From Candidatus Asgardarchaeum abyssi (GTDB lineage Archaea; Asgardarchaeota; Asgardarchaeia; Asgardarchaeales; Asgardarchaeaceae), in contig JBECUL010000009.1 in NCBI GenBank assembly GCA_040225955.1, forward strand, positions 1 to 55,348: a DNA stretch of 55,348 nucleotides. The letters run 5' to 3'. Below the pieces are notes generated by a model. That model had not been told where the DNA came from and searched no databases. It saw only the letters and a program-made list of their open reading frames with translations. A program made the position numbers and the translations under genes. Shown piece by piece: positions 1,623 through 11,768 of the stretch. Each line of letters starts with the position of its first letter. The first letter of the stretch is position 1.

Positions 1623-3503
1623 TCACTTGTATAAGTCTGTTATCACGAAATCAAGCCCCAATTTTTTTAGTTTACCCTTCGATGGTCTTCCTGTTATGTA
1701 GTCCCAGTCTTCATATTCAAAGTATTCTCGCACCCTAGGCTCGAGATTTAATATTAATCCCTTATGGGGACCTTTCTCCATAGGAGGTTTTCCTAAAATT
1801 CTATCTGGCAATTTAAATTTACTTGGCTTAAGTCCCTCACGAATGTTGAAGCACCATCTTAGGGTTCCGATTCTATTTCCTATTGTTAGAAATTCTTCGG
1901 GTGAAACATTCCAGCCAGTAACGGCTTTTATAAATTCCATTGGTGTTGGTATTCCCTCTATTTCTCCTGCCCAATTCCAGAAGCTACATATTCCAAGTGA
2001 GTGAAAAGCGTGCGTGAAGTTTGTCACCAGCCAGTGAATTTCAGCCTTCCCATAGGGATTGTATTTGTCTTTTATTTTAAATGTTCCAATTCCAGGCAGA
2101 AATAGTGGGGACCCCCATATCTCAGAATATCCTTCAGTTCCTTGAGTATGTCTAGCAGGAGTTGCATTTGAAATATATGTCACTCCGAGACCTGGACCTG
2201 CTCTTGGATCGTGCATTGGTAAATCTTGTCCACCGACGTGCATGGCATATTTCTCACTACCCTTTCCTATTCTATCAGCTGCAAATTTAGAACCATCAGC
2301 AAGAATTTCGCCAAAGCTTTCACGTTTAGCTATTAGAAGCACCAATTCCTCTTTTGCCTCGTTATCATCCCATTTTAGTTCAATCCCACCTAAATCTTCC
2401 TTAGTTATAATTTCCTTTTCATATAGTTCAAGCGCAAATGCTAGTGTAGAGCCTGTTGAAATGGTATCGAGTCCGTACTCATTACATATATTATTCATCA
2501 TGATTATGGACTTTAAATCGTCATTTAAGCAATTTGAACCTAAAGCAACTAAGGTTTCATACTCTGGTTTATGAGCAATTATTTTCTGAGCATCACCTAT
2601 CTCGACAATACCACCACATCCAACTGGACATCCATAACACGCGTATTTTCTTTTTTGGAATTTTATAACAGCCTCATCGCTTATCTTTTTACTATTTGGA
2701 AAATCTTCTGGTGCGCCGCTCCAGTTTTTTATTGGAGCGTCCCCTACCATTATGCAACCCGCTGTACCTCCGCATGTTCCATATTTTGAAAGCATTTCCC
2801 ATGCTGGATTCTTTGTTCCTATTTTAATGAATTGTTTTCGCAATTCTAGGAGATCATCTAGATTATTTACTGGGATTTCTTTATGTCCTTTAATTGCAAT
2901 AGCTTTAAGATTCTTTGAGCCCATAACGGCTCCTAATCCAGATCTCGCTGCAGCTCTACCAGAGTCCGTTATAACTCCAGAGATTAAAGAAAGTTTCTCA
3001 GCTGCTGGTCCAATAGCAGCTATCTTCACCCCTTTATCACCTAGCTCATCACGGATTACATTTTCAGTCTCTGACACCGTAAGACCCCAAATGTGTTCTG
3101 CAGACTTGAATTCTATAGAGTCTTCAGTTATCCATAAATATACTGGCTTTTCAGCTCTGCCATAAACTAAAATTCCATCATACCCTGCACGTTTTATCTC
3201 AGGGCCAAAGTAACCACCACATCTGGAGTCTCCCCATCCTCCCGTTATTGGAGATTTTCCTATAACATGGAATGATCCACTAAATGGTGCTTGTGTTCCT
3301 GTAAGTATGCCTGTCATAAATCCTAAAACGTTATCCGGGGATAGCGGATCAACACCCTTGGGTATCTTTTCATAGAGAAGTCTTACCCCCAGCCCATAGC
3401 CGCCATACCATTCCTTATACATAGATTCGTGAAGTTTCTCAACGTGATATTTTTTCTTTGTTAGATCTATATGTAGAATATATCCCATAAAACCATCGGG
3501 CAT
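1623..3503 (-). CDS. aor: Tungsten-containing aldehyde:ferredoxin oxidoreductase family protein
   Basis: GFMGYILHIDLT start, KSPITGG, GRAAARSGLGAVMGSKNLKAI, CYGCPVGC Fe-S motif, PEYET, GLDTIS. Confidence 0.93.
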   Translation of the reverse strand: MPDGFMGYILHIDLTKKKYHVEKLHESMYKEWYGGYGLGVRLLYEKIPKGVDPLSPDNVLGFMTGILTGTQAPFSGSFHVIGKSPITGGWGDSRCGGYFGPEIKRAGYDGILVYGRAEKPVYLWITEDSIEFKSAEHIWGLTVSETENVIRDELGDKGVKIAAIGPAAEKLSLISGVITDSGRAAARSGLGAVMGSKNLKAIAIKGHKEIPVNNLDDLLELRKQFIKIGTKNPAWEMLSKYGTCGGTAGCIMVGDAPIKNWSGAPEDFPNSKKISDEAVIKFQKRKYACYGCPVGCGGIVEIGDAQKIIAHKPEYETLVALGSNCLNDDLKSIIMMNNICNEYGLDTISTGSTLAFALELYEKEIITKEDLGGIELKWDDNEAKEELVLLIAKRESFGEILADGSKFAADRIGKGSEKYAMHVGGQDLPMHDPRAGPGLGVTYISNATPARHTQGTEGYSEIWGSPLFLPGIGTFKIKDKYNPYGKAEIHWLVTNFTHAFHSLGICSFWNWAGEIEGIPTPMEFIKAVTGWNVSPEEFLTIGNRIGTLRWCFNIREGLKPSKFKLPDRILGKPPMEKGPHKGLILNLEPRVREYFEYEDWDYITGRPSKGKLKKLGLDFVITDLYK

Positions 3504-3507
3504 GCGT

Positions 3508-4542
3508 CTACACCCACATTACCCGTAATTTCTTAATATATCCTCGTTTTTTTAATAATTCCCTAACTCTCTCTTCAGCCTTAAAGATCGGATGTTTAGC
3601 TGTAAGCTCCTTTAATTTTGAAAATACGGGATATGTTGCCTGTTGTTCTAATTTCCACTCTTTGGCAAATTTCCCTGTGACTATTTCATTGACTATACAC
3701 TTTATTTTATCTTTTATCTCGCTGGAAGAGAAAATCTCTTGTCTAGTGAGAGTGCCGTATTGACTTGTGGTGGAATGAAGTTTTGCTTGTTCGAGGTATC
3801 CCATTTCAAAAATTGCCTTCCACATCTCAAAAACTTCACCAGAAACATAAAGTTCCAGCACTTCAATTTCTGGTCTAACTCCAGCTTCTATAGCTGTTTC
3901 AAAAGACATTTTCAGTGCGGCTAAAGTTATGGCACCCATAACCTGCTCGGATATAAGATCACATATTGTTTCTTCCTCAAAACTAGATTCAAAGGCACCT
4001 ACTCTTGTAAACCCGATTCCTTTCGCCAAGGCCAATGCAATTTTAAGCTCTAAGTCTTTGGACTTATCTCTAACAGCTATAAGTGCAGGTGCTCCTCGTC
4101 CCTCCTTATATAGTTCTCTAACACCTTTACCTATCATTCTTGGTGCTACTAGTATTACATTTACATAGTCTGGAGGGTTTATGAATCCATATGTTATATT
4201 ATATCCACTAGCGAAACATAAAGTCTTTCCGGCAGTGAGATAGCTTTCGATTTCGGACTTATAAACTTCTGGCATTATTTCATCAGGAATTAATAAGCAA
4301 ATAACATCCGCCTTTTTGACAGCATCACTGATGGGCATAACTTTGAAGCCATCTTTTACTGCTATATCCCAATATTTATCTTTTATATTTCCCACTATTA
4401 CATTAAGACCGCTATCTCTAAGATTTAAAGCCCAAGCTTGGCCTTGATTTCCGTAACCAATAATTCCAATTATCTTATCTTTTAATATACTAAGATCTGC
4501 ATCTTCATCAAAATATACGGTAACGGATCCTATTCTCTCCAT
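3508..4542 (-). CDS. ilvC: Ketol-acid reductoisomerase (IlvC)-like protein, class I, divergent catalytic motifs
   Basis: IGIIGYGNQGQAWALNLRDSG Rossmann motif, LIPDE, FEEETICDLISEQ; ASGYN and APRMIG differ from canonical AHGFN and APK. Confidence 0.85.
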   Translation of the reverse strand: MERIGSVTVYFDEDADLSILKDKIIGIIGYGNQGQAWALNLRDSGLNVIVGNIKDKYWDIAVKDGFKVMPISDAVKKADVICLLIPDEIMPEVYKSEIESYLTAGKTLCFASGYNITYGFINPPDYVNVILVAPRMIGKGVRELYKEGRGAPALIAVRDKSKDLELKIALALAKGIGFTRVGAFESSFEEETICDLISEQVMGAITLAALKMSFETAIEAGVRPEIEVLELYVSGEVFEMWKAIFEMGYLEQAKLHSTTSQYGTLTRQEIFSSSEIKDKIKCIVNEIVTGKFAKEWKLEQQATYPVFSKLKELTAKHPIFKAEERVRELLKKRGYIKKLRVMWV

Positions 4543-4602
4543 ATGATCACCACAACTTGTGATTTATTTAATTATTATTATAATATATATTATAATGTCT
4601 TA

Positions 4603-6411
4603 TTATTCCTCGGATATGAGATTTATAATAAGAGGAACAATTCTTTGTTTTTCTACATCAATTAACCCTTTATCGCTTATTTTAAGCTCAGGTATAGAGG
4701 GACATGCTTGGAACGAAAGTGTCATTATCGGTGATTTAAATGTGGAGCCCAATTTATCTCTAATATCTTTTTCAATTTTCTCAAGTTTTGATGCAACGTT
4801 TTCTACATTCTCTAAAGAAATAATTCCTCCTAGAGGAAGTGATAGGCTACTTAAAATTTGATTATTCGAAGCAACAGCAATTCCCCCATTTAATTCAGAT
4901 ATGTGGTTTGCTACAAGTGCCATGTCTCTGTCGTTAGTTCCGATTACTAATAGGTTATGGGTATCATGAGCTATACTGCAGCCAAATGCACCGTTTTTTA
5001 TTCCAAATCCTTTTATGAAACCTAAACCGATATTTAAGTCTGTTTTCCCAAATCTCTCAATACAAGCTATTTTTGCTATGCCTTTCTCGCTATCGGCGGT
5101 AATTTTATGATCCTTAACCACCAGTTTTTCAATGACTCTTTTACTTATCAAACTACCATCCTTAACACTTATTATATTGCATTCTGCAATGCCATTACTT
5201 ATTTTAACATTAATCTGAAAGTCATCTGGAGTTAATTTTCGTTTTAATCTAAATGTTTTAATGGCCCAATCGGGGTATTTTGATTGTTCTAAATCAATTA
5301 TCAATCTTCCATTTTCTGCTACTATTTGTCCATTTGCGATAACTTTTGAGATTTTGAATTTTTCTAAGTTATCAATTATTAATATATCTGCTATTTTCCC
5401 AGGAACCAAACTACCGATTTCTCTATCTAATCCAAAATATATTGCGGGATTTATTGTTGCCATCTGAATCGCTGAAATTGGATCAACACCCTCATTTATT
5501 GCTTGTTGTATAATATAATTTATATGCCCCTCACTCAAAATATCCGAAGGAGTCCTATCATCTGAGCAGAATGAGCAAAACCTTGTTGGAAGCCTTTTCT
5601 CTGTGACTATTTTAATTAAATTTTTAAGATCTCTAGCTGCTGACCCTTCTCTTATCATTAAGTGAACTCCAACTCTCAATCTATTTAATGCGTCTTCGAT
5701 ATCTGTTGCTTCATGATCTGACGATGCCCCTGCTGCAAAGTAAGATACTATTTTCTTTATATCTTTAACACCTGCAATATGCCCCTCTATACTTAATTTA
5801 TGCATCATAGCTGCTTCAGCGAGTCTATAAAACTCAGGTTGAGTTAGTCTACTTATCTCCCCCAGTGCAACTGCAAAGTCCCATGTCATCATTTCTTTAA
5901 GGTCATCAAATGTAAAAACAAATCCTGGTGTTAAAATTGTTGTAAGCGCATCATTGGGAGTTGATGGCACTGCTAAAAATACTTTAAGAGGCGTGTTACT
6001 AGCTTCTTCTAAGAGTAATTTTAAGCCAGTTTTACCTAATGTCCACAAGATTTCATGAAAATCAGTTATTATTGTCGTAGTTCCAAGAGGGAGTACTGCT
6101 TTAGCGAATTGTGTTGGTGTTATCATACTGCTTTCTATATGAATATGAGGATCTATTAGTCCGGGGACTGCATATTTACCCTCTAATGATATGACCCTTG
6201 TTTTTTCACCAATTGATTTTGAAAAATCAGAAATTTTCTCTCCTATAAAGGCTATTCTTTCTCCTTTTATTGCTATTATGGCTTGATAAACCTCTTCGGT
6301 ATGAACATTAACTAGATTAACATTCTTTAATATGAAATCTGCTTTTTCTTCACCATTTATTACTCTTATTAGGTCAATACGCTGTACTCTTGTTGAGATA
6401 AACTTCGGCAA
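4603..6411 (-). CDS. ade: Adenine deaminase family amidohydrolase
   Basis: PGLIDPHIHIESS, TDFHEI, DHE, IREGSAA, SDD, AHDTHN; 602 aa; TTG start. Confidence 0.88.
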   Translation of the reverse strand: MPKFISTRVQRIDLIRVINGEEKADFILKNVNLVNVHTEEVYQAIIAIKGERIAFIGEKISDFSKSIGEKTRVISLEGKYAVPGLIDPHIHIESSMITPTQFAKAVLPLGTTTIITDFHEILWTLGKTGLKLLLEEASNTPLKVFLAVPSTPNDALTTILTPGFVFTFDDLKEMMTWDFAVALGEISRLTQPEFYRLAEAAMMHKLSIEGHIAGVKDIKKIVSYFAAGASSDHEATDIEDALNRLRVGVHLMIREGSAARDLKNLIKIVTEKRLPTRFCSFCSDDRTPSDILSEGHINYIIQQAINEGVDPISAIQMATINPAIYFGLDREIGSLVPGKIADILIIDNLEKFKISKVIANGQIVAENGRLIIDLEQSKYPDWAIKTFRLKRKLTPDDFQINVKISNGIAECNIISVKDGSLISKRVIEKLVVKDHKITADSEKGIAKIACIERFGKTDLNIGLGFIKGFGIKNGAFGCSIAHDTHNLLVIGTNDRDMALVANHISELNGGIAVASNNQILSSLSLPLGGIISLENVENVASKLEKIEKDIRDKLGSTFKSPIMTLSFQACPSIPELKISDKGLIDVEKQRIVPLIINLISEE

Positions 6412-6475
6412 GGTAATCCCTCTAATGATTATTTAATTACTTGCTAAAAAATATATGAGAGAAACAACTTAACTT

Positions 6476-7330
6476 TTAGCCCTTAATATTGTACTTTGCA
6501 AATAATTTCTGAATGACATCAAGCATTTCTCTAACGGTAAGCACACTTTTAGGTATTTCTTTATCTGTAATATTCCGCTTCAAGGCATGAGCGTATTGTG
6601 TAATTTGTGGAGGAAATAAAAATGTCTCTTTAAGAATTTCTGGTTGAGCGAAGACGTCTCTGACATCGCCTTCCAATAAAATTCTTCCTCTATGCATAAC
6701 AATAACACGTTTAGCATACTCAGCAACAATACGCATATCGTGTGTTATAAATATGATGATATGACCTGAATCATGCATCTTTTTAACATATTGCATTACT
6801 TTTTCTGATTGTCTCCAATCAAGTCCTGTAGTTGGTTCATCAAGTATTAGCACCTTTGGACGCATAGCAACTATAGATGCTAGTGCAATTCTTGTTTTTT
6901 CGCCTTTACTCCTAAATATGGGATTCTCTTTTCTTATTTTCGTTAGTTCAAATATTTCAAGAGCCTCCTCCACTCTTTCTTTGATTTCATCTTCAGAAAG
7001 TCCTAAATTTCTAGGACCAAAGGCAATTTCCTCCTCTATTGTGTTTGAGAATATTTGATGGTCTGGATTTTGAAAGAGATAGCCAACTTTTCGTGCCAAT
7101 TCTGCAACGGTGGATTTCCTAGTATCTACACCATCTACAATAACTTGACCCTTTGTTGGTTTAAGTAGACCATTAAAATGCTTAACAAGTGTTGTTTTTC
7201 CAGAGCCATTTTGCCCAATAATTGCTACAAAATCGCCTTCATAGATTTTAAGCGATATATCCTCAAGAGCTAATGTCCCATCTGGATATGTAAATGAAAG
7301 ATCCTCAACTACTATATAGGGATCTGTCAT
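6476..7330 (-). CDS. ECF transporter ATPase (EcfA/A'), degenerate signature motif
   Basis: GQNGSGKT, FQNPDHQ, LDEPT, ITHD; signature RSKGE; ATG at 7330 preferred over 7378. Confidence 0.9.
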   Translation of the reverse strand: MTDPYIVVEDLSFTYPDGTLALEDISLKIYEGDFVAIIGQNGSGKTTLVKHFNGLLKPTKGQVIVDGVDTRKSTVAELARKVGYLFQNPDHQIFSNTIEEEIAFGPRNLGLSEDEIKERVEEALEIFELTKIRKENPIFRSKGEKTRIALASIVAMRPKVLILDEPTTGLDWRQSEKVMQYVKKMHDSGHIIIFITHDMRIVAEYAKRVIVMHRGRILLEGDVRDVFAQPEILKETFLFPPQITQYAHALKRNITDKEIPKSVLTVREMLDVIQKLFAKYNIKG

Positions 7331-7331
7331 T

Positions 7332-8186
7332 TCATTCCCTCCTGAGCAATTTAAGTGTCTTTTGAACAGCCTCATCAAGCGTAATCGGATATTGCTCTAC
7401 GTTACAATTTAATTCTTTATTGATTAAGTGGAATAATTCTGTAACTTGAGGAGGTCTAACACCAAGCTTCATTAGAAAATCAACGTCACTAAATATCTCT
7501 CTTGGAGTACCAATTCGAACAATTTCACCTGCATTCATTAGTACTATTCTATCAGCAAATTCAGCAACCATTTCAGCCTCTTGTGTAAAAAGAATTATTG
7601 TGATACTATATTTTTCTCTCAGCTCTTTAACAACACTAAATACCTCATATTTTCCAATAGGGTCTAAGCTTGCTGTAGGATCATCCAGAACCAAAACTTT
7701 AGTTTTCATTGCCAGCGCGGCTGCTATTGCAACCCTCTGTTTCTGCCCTCCAGATAATCGATGAGGCGGTTTATCTCTATACTCCTTCATATCAACAACA
7801 TCTAAAGCCCATTCAACTCTTTCAATCATCTCATCATTTGGAAGATTTAAGTTTTCTAAACCAAATGCAACTTCACTTTCAACAGACATCATGCAAAATT
7901 GACTTTCTGGGTCTTGGAACACCATACCTACTATTCTTGCTAATCTTCCTACCTTTTCTGTTCTTGTATCTAGTCCATCAACTATAACATTCCCTTTAAA
8001 GGTACCAGGAATACTATGTGGTATTAACCCATTTAAACAAAGACCTAGAGTGGACTTCCCCGATTCAGCAGGACCCATTATAACAATAAATTCACCCTCT
8101 TCTATATCCAAATTTATATTTTTTAAAGTCCACTTAGGACTTCCTCTATATTTAAACCATAAATTTTTAATTTCAATTATTGGCAT
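7332..8186 (-). CDS. ECF transporter ATPase (EcfA/A'), degenerate Walker B and H-loop
   Basis: GPAESGKST, FQDPESQ, LSGGQKQR, LVLDDPT, FTQE; ATG at 8186. Confidence 0.9.
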   Translation of the reverse strand: MPIIEIKNLWFKYRGSPKWTLKNINLDIEEGEFIVIMGPAESGKSTLGLCLNGLIPHSIPGTFKGNVIVDGLDTRTEKVGRLARIVGMVFQDPESQFCMMSVESEVAFGLENLNLPNDEMIERVEWALDVVDMKEYRDKPPHRLSGGQKQRVAIAAALAMKTKVLVLDDPTASLDPIGKYEVFSVVKELREKYSITIILFTQEAEMVAEFADRIVLMNAGEIVRIGTPREIFSDVDFLMKLGVRPPQVTELFHLINKELNCNVEQYPITLDEAVQKTLKLLRRE

Positions 8187-8203
8187 GGTAACTCCTCGTT
8201 TTT

Positions 8204-9013
8204 TTATAATCGCCAAGGGATTATAGCCAGGTAACCAAAGTAGTATCTTAGTATTAATACTAGAATGAAAACAGCAAATGATAAAAATATCATAACATAA
8301 TCAGTTTTGGAATATCTCGGCTCCTTGTAGAAGCTTCTGGGCTGAAGGGGTATAAATCCTCTAGAATCTAAAGCATTTGCTAATATGGTAACTCGCTTAA
8401 ATGATGTTATTAGCCAAGGAACAAGGATTATTATTAATTTTTTTACTCGCTCTAATAAGCTCCCTTTTTCAAGTTCGAGGCCTCTAGACATCTGAGCTTC
8501 AACAATAGTATGATAGTCGTCGTAAAGAGTAGGTATGAATCTCAGTGCTAAAGCAAATATCAAACAGATAAAGTAAGGGATTCGTAATTTCCTCATTCCA
8601 GCTATTATATCGACTTCCCTTGTTGTTACAACTAGTATTATTGTTATAGCTAGAAGTGATAAAAGTCGTAATGCCATAGCTATTGCTAATGGGATGCTGA
8701 GATCAGTAATATAAATCCCGTCATAGACTTTATAAATTGGTTTACCAACACCACTAAACAATAGCCATGAAACTGCGATTGCGCATGTAACAACAACTGC
8801 AGTTCTCAAGAAGGGTTTAAGTACAGCAGAAGTCACTTTCAGTTTGAATTTAAGCCAGATAGCAGGTATACCAACAGCTAAGAGAAATACAAGGTTCCAG
8901 AGAGGCATCTGAATAAATAACGCAGTAATAGACATTAAAAAAGTAAAAATGATTTTTGTTTGTGGTGAAAGCTTATGGAAGAATGTATTCCCAGGACAGT
9001 ATAGCTCAGACAT
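8204..9013 (-). CDS. ecfT: ECF transporter transmembrane T component
   Basis: FHKLSPQTKI start, ALRFIP, AQMSRG and ALDSRG coupling motifs. Confidence 0.9.
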   Translation of the reverse strand: MSELYCPGNTFFHKLSPQTKIIFTFLMSITALFIQMPLWNLVFLLAVGIPAIWLKFKLKVTSAVLKPFLRTAVVVTCAIAVSWLLFSGVGKPIYKVYDGIYITDLSIPLAIAMALRLLSLLAITIILVVTTREVDIIAGMRKLRIPYFICLIFALALRFIPTLYDDYHTIVEAQMSRGLELEKGSLLERVKKLIIILVPWLITSFKRVTILANALDSRGFIPLQPRSFYKEPRYSKTDYVMIFLSFAVFILVLILRYYFGYLAIIPWRL

Positions 9014-9021
9014 TAATCAAA

Positions 9022-9648
9022 TTACTCCTCGCCTTCTTCTTCAATTAAAGTTAGAGCAAAGAAACCTTCAAAGTATAACCCACTTCTTTCAATATATGGA
9101 GTCAAAAGTTTAAGCATCAAGACTCCTAGAGTGAGACATGCAACAGCATCAGCTATAAACCACGGCCATATGGCAACCGTAAATGCAAATTCTGGTGTAT
9201 ACCAACCTATTGCTATACTTACTATCATTCCACCGAAGGCATCCATGAATGTATTTACTATTGACCCGAAAATAATATACATGATGATACTTCGCTTATC
9301 CCTCAACATGGGATCTAATTTCATGACCCTCCACACTATAGCTGGAATAAGAGCATCCCACATTCCTGCAAGTACACCAAATGCTATTGCGACTGGAATT
9401 GAATATCCCCAGAATGGTGCTGAAAGAATAGTCCCTATAATTGGACCAAGAACTCCCCAAAAACCAAACCAGATTCCCGTAGCTGATGCATAACCGGAAG
9501 CTGGATAGATTACAGAAACTCCTGGGATAGGCTGAAAGAGAGTACCAAATGTACCCAAGACATAGTAAATTCCTGAGTTAAGTGCAGCAACAACAATGGC
9601 TTTAGTACTTATTTCAGGGGTAAAAATACCCTTTTTCTTACCACTCAC
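9022..9648 (-). CDS. ECF transporter substrate-specific S component (QueT-like); substrate unknown
   Basis: 208 aa, about 6 TM helices, FGFWGVLGPIIGTILS, first gene of the EcfT/A/A' operon. Confidence 0.75.
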   Translation of the reverse strand: MSGKKKGIFTPEISTKAIVVAALNSGIYYVLGTFGTLFQPIPGVSVIYPASGYASATGIWFGFWGVLGPIIGTILSAPFWGYSIPVAIAFGVLAGMWDALIPAIVWRVMKLDPMLRDKRSIIMYIIFGSIVNTFMDAFGGMIVSIAIGWYTPEFAFTVAIWPWFIADAVACLTLGVLMLKLLTPYIERSGLYFEGFFALTLIEEEGEE

Positions 9649-9819
9649 TCTTTATTCCTCCTGCTTCGTATTTATTCATGAGAACATATTTATAGGAAAT
9701 ATTACTATCTCTCTATACAGAGGAGGTTTTATTTAAACCTTTTTAGCTATTTTTATAAATAAAGCAAGAATATTTTAAAAAAAATAAAAAGTTGAAAAAA
9801 AAATTAAGGAGGAATTAGG

Positions 9820-10362
9820 TTGTGTGAAAAAGAATTAACCGAAAAAGAAAAGGAACTATTAGAATTAGCAAGAAGTTTAATAGGAGAAATGACACCAGAA
9901 GATAGAGTTAAATTTCTTGCAAAACAATGGGCATTATTATTCGGTGGTTTTGTGAAAATGCTTAAAGAAAAATACGGAGAAGAGGGAATAAAGTTAGCAT
10001 GTGAAGTAATGCGATTTCTCGGAAGAAAGTATGCTGAAGAGAAAGTAAAAGAGCTTAACATAACTCCTGGAAAGGCTGATGTCCTTGACTTCTATAAGAT
10101 TGAAGGTGGCTGGGATCCCTCAATGGAATATAAGTTTAAATTATTAGAGTTGAATAAGAAGAAGTTCCACATCTATTATACTGCATGCCCACTAGTAGAT
10201 ATTTGGAAGAGCATCGGAGCGCCAGAGGAAATTTGCCAAATTTATGCCTACTTTGACGTTGGTGTTGCCGAAGTTCTTAACCCAAAAATGAAAGTCAGTA
10301 ATCCAACGTCACTTTATAAAGGCGATGATCATTGTGACTTTATTGTAGAATTAGAAGATTAG
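9820..10362 (+). CDS. L-2-amino-thiazoline-4-carboxylate hydrolase-like (V4R-fold) protein
   Basis: EKYGEE, YTACPLVDIWK, ICQIY..D, GDDHCDF pattern; GGAGG RBS, TTG start. Confidence 0.75.
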   Translation: MCEKELTEKEKELLELARSLIGEMTPEDRVKFLAKQWALLFGGFVKMLKEKYGEEGIKLACEVMRFLGRKYAEEKVKELNITPGKADVLDFYKIEGGWDPSMEYKFKLLELNKKKFHIYYTACPLVDIWKSIGAPEEICQIYAYFDVGVAEVLNPKMKVSNPTSLYKGDDHCDFIVELED

Positions 10363-10373
10363 AGAACATGATG

Positions 10374-11768
10374 CTATTCTGATTCAACTATACTAAAATC
10401 CAAGCCTAAATCTGCTAGTTCTTTTTTAATTTTTATGTAAGTTTCGTATACTTGTGGTTTTATCTTGAGTGTTTTCCAATCGTATATTTCTCCAAAAGTC
10501 AATCCCTCTGGGGCGTCTCTTATTTTATCTTCATATTTTTTTAACAAAATCTTAACTATCTCATTAGCCTCTTCACGCTTAAGTTTTGTTGAAGCGTAAG
10601 CCACTTCAGCTTCCCATTTTGCTTCCAATCCGCTACATTGATTCGGTTTTGTTAATTTGGTTTTCCTCACTCCATGCATAACATGAAATCCAGACACCGT
10701 GTGTGTTATTGTACCAGCAGCAATCTCATAAAACATCATTTCTGTTCCTGGTCCTGCGTATGTAACTAATCCAGCACCTGAAATGGCCTTTGTATTCCTC
10801 TGAGTTGCTTGCCCGACAATACTTCTTACCCAAAGCGCCTCTCTTGCTGTACTTCCAGGTGGCATCACTCTGATAACATCGAAATTTATGTACCCTTTAT
10901 ATCCCTGATAAATTATAAGAGCCATAAATAGGCTAGCTACTCCTACAAGAGCTGTTCCTTCTGGGCCTCCGGCAAATCCACCAACCATTGGAACACGGTA
11001 TGGATTTGGAATTATGTCATTTTCCAAAGCATACGCAACTTTGCTCAATTGAGCATTATCTGTCTTCATTTCACTAATGATAGGAATTGCTATAGCATCG
11101 GTCTTTGTTAGACCATTCTCTATACCAAAAGCTGTCATGTCTCCTATTGCAGAGGGTTGTGCACTAATTAAATGTAATCCAGGTCTATTAACTCTTTGCA
11201 AGCTATCTTTTATCCACTTAACTGCATTAGCAGCTGCTATAACTTCGAGAGGTGAGTCATGAACTATTGTTACTCCCTTTATTACTGTTGGTGGTCCAAA
11301 ATATATGCCATCTATTAAGGGTTCTCTGGCTATGGTTTCATATAATTTAATGAAAGGTTCTCCTTCTTCGGGGTTTCCTTCAATTACCCCTCCAAGTATC
11401 ATAGGTGGTCTGGTATCCTCAACTTCTCTCTTCCTTAGTATTCTGGTCTCTTTACCAGCTCCTATAGTAATTTCATCACGTACGTTCTTTAAATACTCTT
11501 TAACATCAGATTCGTCAATTCGTATCACTCGTTGGCTACTAATATTATAAACTCCCAATTCAAGAAACAACTCTAACCCAGCGTTAAACACATCATCAGC
11601 TAAAGTATTATCACACGGTATTATGTTCTCAGGGTCGTACTTTATTTTGTACTCCTTTACTATTTTAGATGCTACTTTCCAAACCCTCATGTTAAAATCG
11701 TCTGCTGAGACAAGCTCACCTTCATAATAACTTTTATTTAATATCTCAATGTACGATATCAACAACAA
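10374..11768 (-). CDS. mtmB: Monomethylamine methyltransferase MtmB homologue lacking pyrrolysine
   Basis: Collinear with MtmB as I recall it: RPGLHL, GGFAGGPE, AGPGTEM, GLEA, APEGLTFGEIYD, LADLGLDF; the Pyl-equivalent codon is ATT (Ile201, 11166-11168). Confidence 0.9.
   Translation of the reverse strand: MLLISYIEILNKSYYEGELVSADDFNMRVWKVASKIVKEYKIKYDPENIIPCDNTLADDVFNAGLELFLELGVYNISSQRVIRIDESDVKEYLKNVRDEITIGAGKETRILRKREVEDTRPPMILGGVIEGNPEEGEPFIKLYETIAREPLIDGIYFGPPTVIKGVTIVHDSPLEVIAAANAVKWIKDSLQRVNRPGLHLISAQPSAIGDMTAFGIENGLTKTDAIAIPIISEMKTDNAQLSKVAYALENDIIPNPYRVPMVGGFAGGPEGTALVGVASLFMALIIYQGYKGYINFDVIRVMPPGSTAREALWVRSIVGQATQRNTKAISGAGLVTYAGPGTEMMFYEIAAGTITHTVSGFHVMHGVRKTKLTKPNQCSGLEAKWEAEVAYASTKLKREEANEIVKILLKKYEDKIRDAPEGLTFGEIYDWKTLKIKPQVYETYIKIKKELADLGLDFSIVESE

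Follow-up and report, generated by a model that had tools for sequence, protein, structure and literature searches.

Pyrrolysine (Pyl)-free homologues of the methylamine methyltransferase MtmB are widespread in uncultured sediment archaea, where they are usually read as “methylamine” methyltransferases (PMC10321748, PMC9723677). The only one with a demonstrated activity is MtqB (2026), of the MtqBC system of Methanococcoides methylutens, which removes methyl groups from tetramethylammonium and choline; for most of the other Pyl-free MtmB clades, no function has been assigned (PMC13044021). It has been proposed that Pyl-free methyltransferases act on compounds resembling the Pyl-methylamine adduct (PMC13044021). 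Non-Pyl systems of the MttB superfamily include MtgB for glycine betaine, MtpB for proline betaine, MtcB for carnitine, and MtyB for gamma-butyrobetaine (cited in PMC11291895). Earlier work has already suggested that Asgards and Bathyarchaeia carry out nonmethanogenic methylotrophy with Pyl-free methyltransferases (PMC11291895, PMC10321748). Here, we analyzed a 55,348-nucleotide stretch of “Candidatus Asgardarchaeum abyssi” (contig JBECUL010000009.1, hereafter “the window”) in which a Pyl-free MtmB homologue lies next to an operon-like string of genes for an energy-coupling factor (ECF) importer, an adenine-deaminase-family protein (Ade), a ketol-acid reductoisomerase (KARI), and an aldehyde:ferredoxin oxidoreductase (AOR). 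We found that the substrate-binding (S) component of this importer recurs beside Pyl-free MtmB homologues and purine-type deaminases in other archaeal phyla, and in our assessment the three are very probably functionally coupled.

The MtqB clade is marked by a conserved Met/Cys and an aromatic pocket. Like MtqBC, the window has the same MtmB-family fold without Pyl, a presumed corrinoid protein and reductive activator, and a cluster that suggests a dedicated substrate. It differs in that its host is not a methanogen, the corrinoid protein gene is on another contig, and the partners are an ECF importer, ade, KARI, and AOR. With the non-Pyl MttB systems, it shares a Pyl-free methylamine-methyltransferase paralogue for another methylated nitrogen compound, encoded beside a transporter. 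The window, however, has the MtmB family, an ECF-type importer, and purine-type deaminases, whereas the bacterial non-Pyl MttB systems use BCCT/OpuD-type carriers. In the literature that we searched, we found no described pathway with this gene set, in agreement with the initial annotation, and no description of an ECF importer, of adenine-deaminase/DadD-type deaminases, or of KARI as partners of an MtmB system. The components belong to known families; together they would constitute a corrinoid methyltransferase system that has its own importer, and there is a real chance that it serves a new substrate class.

The window is contig C9 of a 2.6-Mb metagenome-assembled genome (93.5% complete, 7.8% contamination). 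The nearest genomes in our comparison share no rank below the phylum with it; they encode Ras-family GTPases beside ilvC, and the best named Ade match is from Asgardarchaeia, all in keeping with an Asgard archaeon. Its composition is typical of that genome (GC of 0.346 versus a mean of 0.339; tetranucleotide rank, 15 of 68) and gives no sign of mis-binning. Open reading frame calling together with Pfam and NCBIfam models bore out all nine genes that the initial annotation had placed here, at the same coordinates:

9022-9648, minus strand: ECF S component; ECF-S fold, no Pfam match
8204-9013, minus strand: ECF T component; PF02361 CbiQ, E 8e-32
7332-8216, minus strand: ECF ATPase A; best model TIGR04520 ECF_ATPase_1, 278.8 bits
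6476-7378, minus strand: ECF ATPase A'; best model TIGR04521 ECF_ATPase_2, 290.2 bits
4603-6411, minus strand: ade, adenine-deaminase-family (COG1001) amidohydrolase; TIGR01178, 491.7 bits versus a cutoff of 472.5
3508-4542, minus strand: ilvC, class I KARI of the Sso-KARI type; TIGR00465, 283.6 bits versus a cutoff of 226.15
1623-3503, minus strand: aor, tungsten-type aldehyde:ferredoxin oxidoreductase family; AFOR_N, 258 bits, and AFOR_C, 371 bits
9820-10362, plus strand: small Cys-rich ATC_hydrolase-like protein; PF14196, E 2e-18
10374-11768, minus strand: Pyl-free MtmB-family corrinoid methyltransferase homologue of 464 amino acids; PF05369, E 5e-86, 289.6 bits

The first seven genes were confirmed to be co-directional, and neighbors overlap by, or are separated by, 4 to 64 bp. 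The S and T genes are separated by 8 bp, T overlaps A by 13 bp, and A overlaps A' by 47 bp (longest open reading frames); then follow gaps of 64 bp (A'/ade), 60 bp (ade/ilvC), and 4 bp (ilvC/aor). Shine-Dalgarno-like GGAGG, GAGGG, or GGTGA motifs are found 5' of S, ade, and ilvC. The ATC_hydrolase-like gene diverges from S over 171 bp and converges with the MtmB gene, with 11 bp between their ends. Out to about 30 kb, the genes on either side have no relation to the cluster (they include a TnpB remnant, a HAD protein, an ABC-2 system, a CoA-disulfide-reductase-like gene, and transporters of the OPT and EamA types), so the earlier statement that no other ilv, purine, or methanogenesis genes are nearby holds. 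The TnpB/Cas12f-like remnant, at 347-1356 just downstream of aor, is broken and matches a Cas12f1-like TNB domain.

The contiguous S, T, A, and A' genes form the group I (dedicated) ECF arrangement. Both ATPases match the ECF_ATPase_1/2 models best, yet their 279 and 290 bits are below the equivalog cutoffs of 315 and 330. The S protein matched no described S family (Pfam/NCBIfam, E ≤ 0.001); the sole family-model signal, at 28 bits, came from the membrane portion of a MASE1-type kinase. Its AlphaFold model (pLDDT, 85.7) has the small six-helix fold of S components, and all of the top PDB matches were ECF S components (BioY, ThiT, FolT, PanT, and RibU; TM of 0.5 to 0.7). The Atlas clusters that hold the protein carry the generic name “ECF transporter S component family,” and their members come mainly from Bathyarchaeota and Chloroflexota. 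Homologues are rare in Asgards (10 of 400 genomes, this one counted). We conclude that the window S component belongs to an uncharacterized ECF S family. Group I vitamin importers such as BioMNY likewise have S, T, A, and A' in one operon, and the S components ThiT, FolT, PanT, and RibU likewise have the six-helix S fold, but the window S matches no described S family and resembles MASE1, and its ECF genes sit in a catabolic-looking operon rather than in a cofactor pathway. The likeness of the S family to MASE1, a membrane sensor domain of histidine kinases, is also structural (Atlas TM of 0.72 to 0.76), and some members have weak precomputed MASE1 Pfam matches.

Distant S homologues (25 to 27% identical) occur in S-T-AA' strings of nine cultured Bacillota (L111 to L119, Paenibacillus and Bacillus spp.). 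The two Pfam-annotated loci, L111 and L116, encode a Crp/cyclic nucleotide monophosphate (cNMP)-binding regulator, S, T, a fused AA', and an Apyc1-like metallo-β-lactamase phosphodiesterase, with an HD-domain match in L116 only. The position of the Paenibacillus homologues beside a cNMP-binding regulator and phosphodiesterase-type genes points to nucleotide-type ligands.

Metagenomes and GTDB were scanned with a five-sequence S alignment as the seed, and the loci found ranged from 28% to 71% GC. The main arrangements, together with those of the Asgard genomes found to have S homologues, are as follows (a slash parts one gene string from the next; LLM, luciferase-like monooxygenase; TPP, thiamine pyrophosphate; OCD, ornithine cyclodeaminase):

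Asgard genome G047: AOR..A-A'-S-T-MtmB
Asgard genomes G040 and G057: MtmB / corrinoid-S-T-A-A'
Metagenome locus L081: S-T-A-A'-DUF1152-KARI ... OCD-corrinoid-MtmB, plus MttB
Metagenome locus L082: S-T-A-A'-DUF1152-KARI, with LLM and a TPP enzyme
Nitrososphaeria, L088 to L091 and L105: MtmB-corrinoid-A'-A / S-T
Caldarchaeum and relatives, L087, L099, L106, and L107: ade-A-A' / S-T, with an ade/A gap of 23 bp
Bathyarchaeia, L103 and L104: TRZ/DadD-type amidohydrolase, MtmB (56 to 57% identical to that of the window) / S (54 to 56%)-T-A-A'-DUF1152-KARI-MttB

We tallied neighbors within 8 kb of S in 22 dereplicated loci from Asgards, Bathyarchaeia, Nitrososphaeria, and Caldarchaeales. MtmB was present in 7, KARI in 5, an F420-type LLM in 5, a COG1001 ade in 4, DUF1152 in 4, a corrinoid protein in 3, a TRZ/DadD-type deaminase in 2, and AOR in 2. 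Since many contigs are short, these counts are lower bounds. The block MtmB / S-T-A-A' is common to the window and Bathyarchaeia at 45 to 57% identity. The S tree contains two starred archaeal clades. One of these includes S proteins with 70% identity to each other, of which one is linked to ade (L106) and another to MtmB and a corrinoid protein (L088). The recurring co-location that the initial annotation had asked to be looked for was therefore found: in other phyla, S recurs beside KARI, deaminases of the Ade or TRZ type, and Pyl-free MtmB, although only parts of the gene set are syntenic.

In the S clade nearest to that of the window, DUF1152, an archaeal protein family with no assigned function, is always encoded between ECF A' and the divergent KARI (L081:13051-14136, L082:13156-14112, L103:11795-12769, and L124:453-1457). 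It is absent from the genome of the window, where ade holds the corresponding position. A model of the protein (pLDDT, 71) gave weak Rossmann-like Foldseek matches with TM of <0.4.

The MtmB homologue of the window aligned to Methanosarcina barkeri MtmB (1L2Q) with 200 bits over residues 17 to 458. Its frame is uninterrupted, with no in-frame UAG, and Ile is aligned to Pyl202 (RPGLHL-I-SAQ). This is the clear case of the motif substitutions that the initial annotation had reported for three enzymes. The genome holds three MtmB homologues; that of the window is 56 to 57% identical to the bathyarchaeal MtmBs flanking S orthologues and 36 to 38% identical to the other two. The Bathyarchaeia-specific O-demethylase MT1 for lignin aromatics is about 300 amino acids long and unrelated to MtmB (PMC10989822), and it was set aside.

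A corrinoid partner, which the initial annotation had suggested looking for in the genome, was found in trans. The sole B12-binding corrinoid protein of the genome is encoded on contig C3, and MtrH is present too, on contig C89 directly downstream of an AOR gene. The C3 gene lies in an island (C3:22000-34000, L026) of ferredoxin, MtmB, AOR, a Mer-like F420 LLM, MtmB, the corrinoid protein, an OCD/alanine dehydrogenase-like protein, a Pyl-free MttB, and a divergent reductive activator of corrinoid proteins (RACo). On C89 (1-7148; L031 and L126), a single-strand string of ECF AA'-T, ferredoxin, the large and small subunits of aconitase X, AOR, and MtrH ends at the contig end. Among Asgards more widely, MtmB homologues occur in 46 of 301 genomes (about 15%). 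A corrinoid protein gene accompanies 14 of the 20 other Asgard MtmB loci; MtrH, RACo, AOR, or KARI is occasional at these 20 loci, and ade is found at none.

Of 301 Asgard genomes, 64 encode homologues of the ATC_hydrolase-like protein. The genomic context of 19 such loci showed that in 9 or more of them (L130 to L133, L135, L136, L140, L144, and L145) the gene follows a Pyl-free MttB gene by about 100 bp on the same strand. The protein looks like an unrecognized accessory of MttB-type methyltransferases.

We then considered the deaminase. The window Ade is a full-length match with both the Amidohydro_1 and Adenine_deam_C domains. It shows no catalytic substitution: in alignment with 3NQB, every metal-binding or catalytic residue checked is kept (HxH, HE, the bridging E, GH, DHE, DD, and the C-terminal HD-HN). 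In length and active site it is thus like Ade (3NQB) and the COG1001 member Bsu06560, which metabolizes N6-methyladenosine (PMC8643624). It differs from both in being one of five paralogues (the other four are 37 to 44% identical to it) and in sharing an operon-like string with an ECF importer. Its nearest relative outside the species is 65% identical and lies on a 2.3-kb contig, and the next is 45% identical. A search for loci anchored on ade returned nothing in Asgards. Within the genome, the ade paralogue on contig C5 was rejected as an operon partner of a nearby ECF module, with HEPN/NTase and hydrolase genes intervening.

Outside Asgards, the ade genes linked to S are extra, divergent paralogues that score below the cutoff. 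Caldarchaeum genome G402, for example, has a canonical ade at 567 bits and an S-linked ade at 392 bits, with no MtmB, while Nitrososphaeria genome G403 has an S-linked MtmB and no ade. Operons of the form ade-A-A' / S-T occur in genomes without any MtmB (G402 and G404). We also examined 12 MtmB loci in the bathyarchaeal genomes G400 and G401, of which the following bear on the window (SBP, substrate-binding protein; ADH, alcohol dehydrogenase):

G400:C81: ade / MtmB-corrinoid, with no ECF genes
G401:C7 (L148): PnrA/Bmp SBP-permease-permease-ade / MtmB-corrinoid / TRZ / AOR / TRZ, with three TRZ/ATZ-type amidohydrolases in all
G401:C55: corrinoid-A-A'-T .. S .. MtmB-AOR
G400:C11 (L157) and G401:C42 (L158): Zn-dependent ADH-AOR-Pyl-free MtmB, a tight operon with gaps of 2 to 66 bp

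G401:C7 implies that a purine-nucleoside ABC importer (PnrA) can occupy the place that the ECF importer has in the window. Another locus of the same genome (G401:C1, L149) encodes Bmp ABC genes, AOR, Ade, a PreA/DHO_dh-Fer4 protein, a second AOR, and another amidohydrolase. L148 and L149 look like anaerobic nucleobase-degradation clusters involving AOR-family enzymes.

The simplest single substrate open to both an Ade paralogue and an MtmB-type methyltransferase would be an N-methylated adenine-type compound. The methylated-nucleobase idea of the initial annotation has gained circumstantial support from the 70%-identical S proteins linked to either enzyme, the subthreshold S-linked ade genes, and the exchange of ECF for PnrA. 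We judge the chances to be even that a dedicated group I ECF importer forms the core of a module that takes up and processes one specific substrate, an N-methylated adenine-type compound. That the substrate is specifically a methylated purine is a reasonable possibility that we would stop short of calling probable.

ECF transporters typically import vitamins, and there are precedents for uptake of cobalamin (ECF-CbrT) and cobalt (CbiMNQO). The importer could accordingly be supplying a corrinoid, cobalt, or another cofactor to the neighboring corrinoid-dependent methyltransferases, and the cotranscription of corrinoid protein genes with ECF genes in L088 and G040 would fit such a role. Several observations make this very improbable. 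CbiM/NikM-type metal uptake was rejected for S, which has no CbiM/NikM Pfam match, has an N terminus (MSGKKKG...) without His, and is closest in fold to BioY, ThiT, FolT, and PanT. A single bathyarchaeal genome carries several S-ECF sets, each beside its own MtmB paralogue, which fits substrate importers. The ade-ECF operons in genomes without any MtmB and the setting of the Paenibacillus homologues, described above, also argue against cofactor supply.

The remaining two enzymes of the string are KARI and AOR. The KARI has both KARI_N and KARI_C domains, and its best PDB match is the Sso-KARI 6JCV (“putative ketol-acid reductoisomerase 2”; 289.8 bits). The unusual motifs noted in the initial annotation are real, but they are shared by 6JCV (FASGYN, APRM(I/V)G, DL(I/M)SE, LE(L/F)Y(V/A)SGE, and HSTTSQYGTLTR), so these substitutions mark a known subclass. 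A search for a canonical ilvC, also proposed at that stage, showed that the window KARI is the sole ilvC copy in the genome, but this 93.5% complete genome yielded only fragments of 29 to 32 bits for ilvB (TIGR00118) and no match for ilvD (TIGR00110). Among other ilvC-bearing Asgards, ilvD was present in four of five and acetolactate synthase-like genes in all five. Ketopantoate reduction is an unlikely job for the orphan KARI, as a dedicated PanE is encoded elsewhere in the genome, along with PanB. Taken together, a sole KARI without ilvB or ilvD and with PanE present is a KARI without an obvious housekeeping job. The KARI tree puts it with the other Asgard sequences, with a long branch of its own (0.72). 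Bathyarchaeal genomes have a canonical ilvC (418 to 426 bits) together with an ECF-linked divergent copy (315 bits). Compared with Sso-KARI 6JCV, then, the window enzyme stands out for its genome without ilvB and ilvD, its transporter operon, and its position 4 bp upstream of an AOR gene.

The window AOR is assigned at the family level (AFOR_N plus AFOR_C), a family that spans the AOR, FOR, GAPOR, WOR, and BamB subfamilies. Bathyarchaeal MtmB loci mark AOR as a repeated MtmB partner. By analogy to the ADH-AOR pairs upstream of bathyarchaeal MtmB genes, KARI and AOR may act in series, taking an alcohol via an aldehyde to an acid. The AOR may alternatively oxidize C1-derived formaldehyde, and the Mer-like LLM beside the C3 AOR fits this role. 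Oxidation of the carbon skeleton, as first proposed, is one of several possibilities.

The ADH-AOR-MtmB operons of L157 and L158 suggest a methylated amino-alcohol substrate. One alternative for the window is quaternary amine or amino-alcohol (choline-like) catabolism, in which the ECF importer would bring in a methylated amine, MtmB would be MtqB-like, KARI and AOR would oxidize an alcohol or hydroxy group via an aldehyde to an acid, and Ade would be a nitrogen or purine-salvage passenger. We regard this as unlikely, even with several points in its favor. MtqB, the only characterized Pyl-free MtmB homologue, acts on just such compounds, and the order ADH, AOR, MtmB parallels KARI followed by AOR in the window. 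Moreover, AOR adjoins MtmB on C3, and Asgard genome G359 has AOR-corrinoid-MtmB-MtrH-RACo on a single strand. A choline-like substrate nevertheless leaves unexplained the ade-A-A' / S-T operons of the MtmB-free genomes, the TRZ/DadD-type deaminase cotranscribed with the MtmB orthologue in L103 and L104, and the presence of a nucleoside importer, PnrA, at the bathyarchaeal locus that corresponds to the window.

For an N-methylated adenine-type substrate, we propose the following order of events. The ECF importer would take up an amino-heterocycle of this type, as base or nucleoside (e.g., N6- or ring-N-methylated adenine). The Pyl-free MtmB would then move the methyl group to the corrinoid protein encoded on C3, acting in trans, with RACo keeping the corrinoid protein reduced, and MtrH would hand the methyl group on to tetrahydromethanopterin. 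The Ade paralogue would strip the exocyclic (methyl)amino group to give hypoxanthine and ammonia or methylamine. In the least certain step, KARI and AOR might pair up as dehydrogenase and aldehyde oxidase, with a side product or a C1-derived aldehyde as their substrate. The gene identities, the intact active sites, the lack of Pyl, ilvB, and ilvD, and the recurrent co-location across phyla are observed; what the substrate is, in what order the reactions run, whether the C3 corrinoid protein takes part in trans, and what KARI and AOR do are inferred.

A number of points weigh against this predicted pathway. ECF transporters are known as low-capacity vitamin importers and not as importers of growth substrates. 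No corrinoid protein is encoded beside MtmB in the window, and it is not obvious what KARI, DUF1152, and LLM would do in purine chemistry. Neither AOR nor ade was found beside ilvC at any of 29 ilvC loci from other Asgards, where the neighbors are unrelated (SelB, Ras-family GTPases, EamA, and others). The window Ade is 34 to 37% identical to S-linked Ades elsewhere and is not orthologous to them, and the KARI tree likewise separates the window KARI from the ECF-linked bathyarchaeal KARIs; this combination would therefore have been assembled independently or by chance. The paralogue load is unusual for a 2.6-Mb archaeon, with about nine ECF T/A modules, at least 11 AOR-family genes, and five COG1001 ade genes, which raises the odds of chance adjacency. 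Finally, the window Ade passes the equivalog cutoff and its active site is intact, so it might simply be an ordinary adenine deaminase.

Several of these same points would be expected from plain purine salvage, with the ECF importer and Ade serving adenine uptake and deamination and with MtmB, KARI, and AOR adjacent through family abundance. The score and intact active site of Ade, the numbers of ECF modules, AORs, and Ades together with three MtmBs, the lack of orthology of KARI and Ade to the ECF-linked copies in other phyla, and the lack of any relative closer than 65% with usable genomic context all agree with it. We nonetheless hold it to be quite improbable. Abundance does not readily account for MtmB within 8 kb of S in 7 of the 22 multiphylum loci when MtmB is found in about 15% of Asgard genomes, or for the conserved MtmB / S-T-A-A' block in Bathyarchaeia. 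Nor does purine salvage sit well with KARI following ECF genes in five loci, the 4-bp gap between KARI and AOR in the window, or a KARI without a housekeeping pathway to serve.

The combination of a new ECF S family, Ade/DadD-type amidohydrolases, a PnrA importer, AOR, and a divergent KARI provides a testable substrate hint for at least one clade of MtmB homologues, and the Paenibacillus and Bacillus carriers offer a tractable system for the ligand class of the S family. It also points to a nonbiosynthetic role for the Sso-type KARI subclass. More broadly, we put forward the tentative and still rather doubtful idea that in Asgards, Bathyarchaeia, and their relatives this ECF family supplies substrate to Pyl-free MtmB homologues and to deaminases of the purine type, with methylated nucleobases or nucleosides from nucleic acid decay, such as N6-methyladenine, as unrecognized methylotrophic substrates. 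If the substrate is a methylated purine, it would be a new substrate class for anaerobic methylotrophy. In two sediment lineages that are among the most abundant, nucleic acid recycling and necromass turnover would then be linked with the C1 pool of the Wood-Ljungdahl pathway, and ECF transporters would extend beyond vitamin uptake to catabolism.

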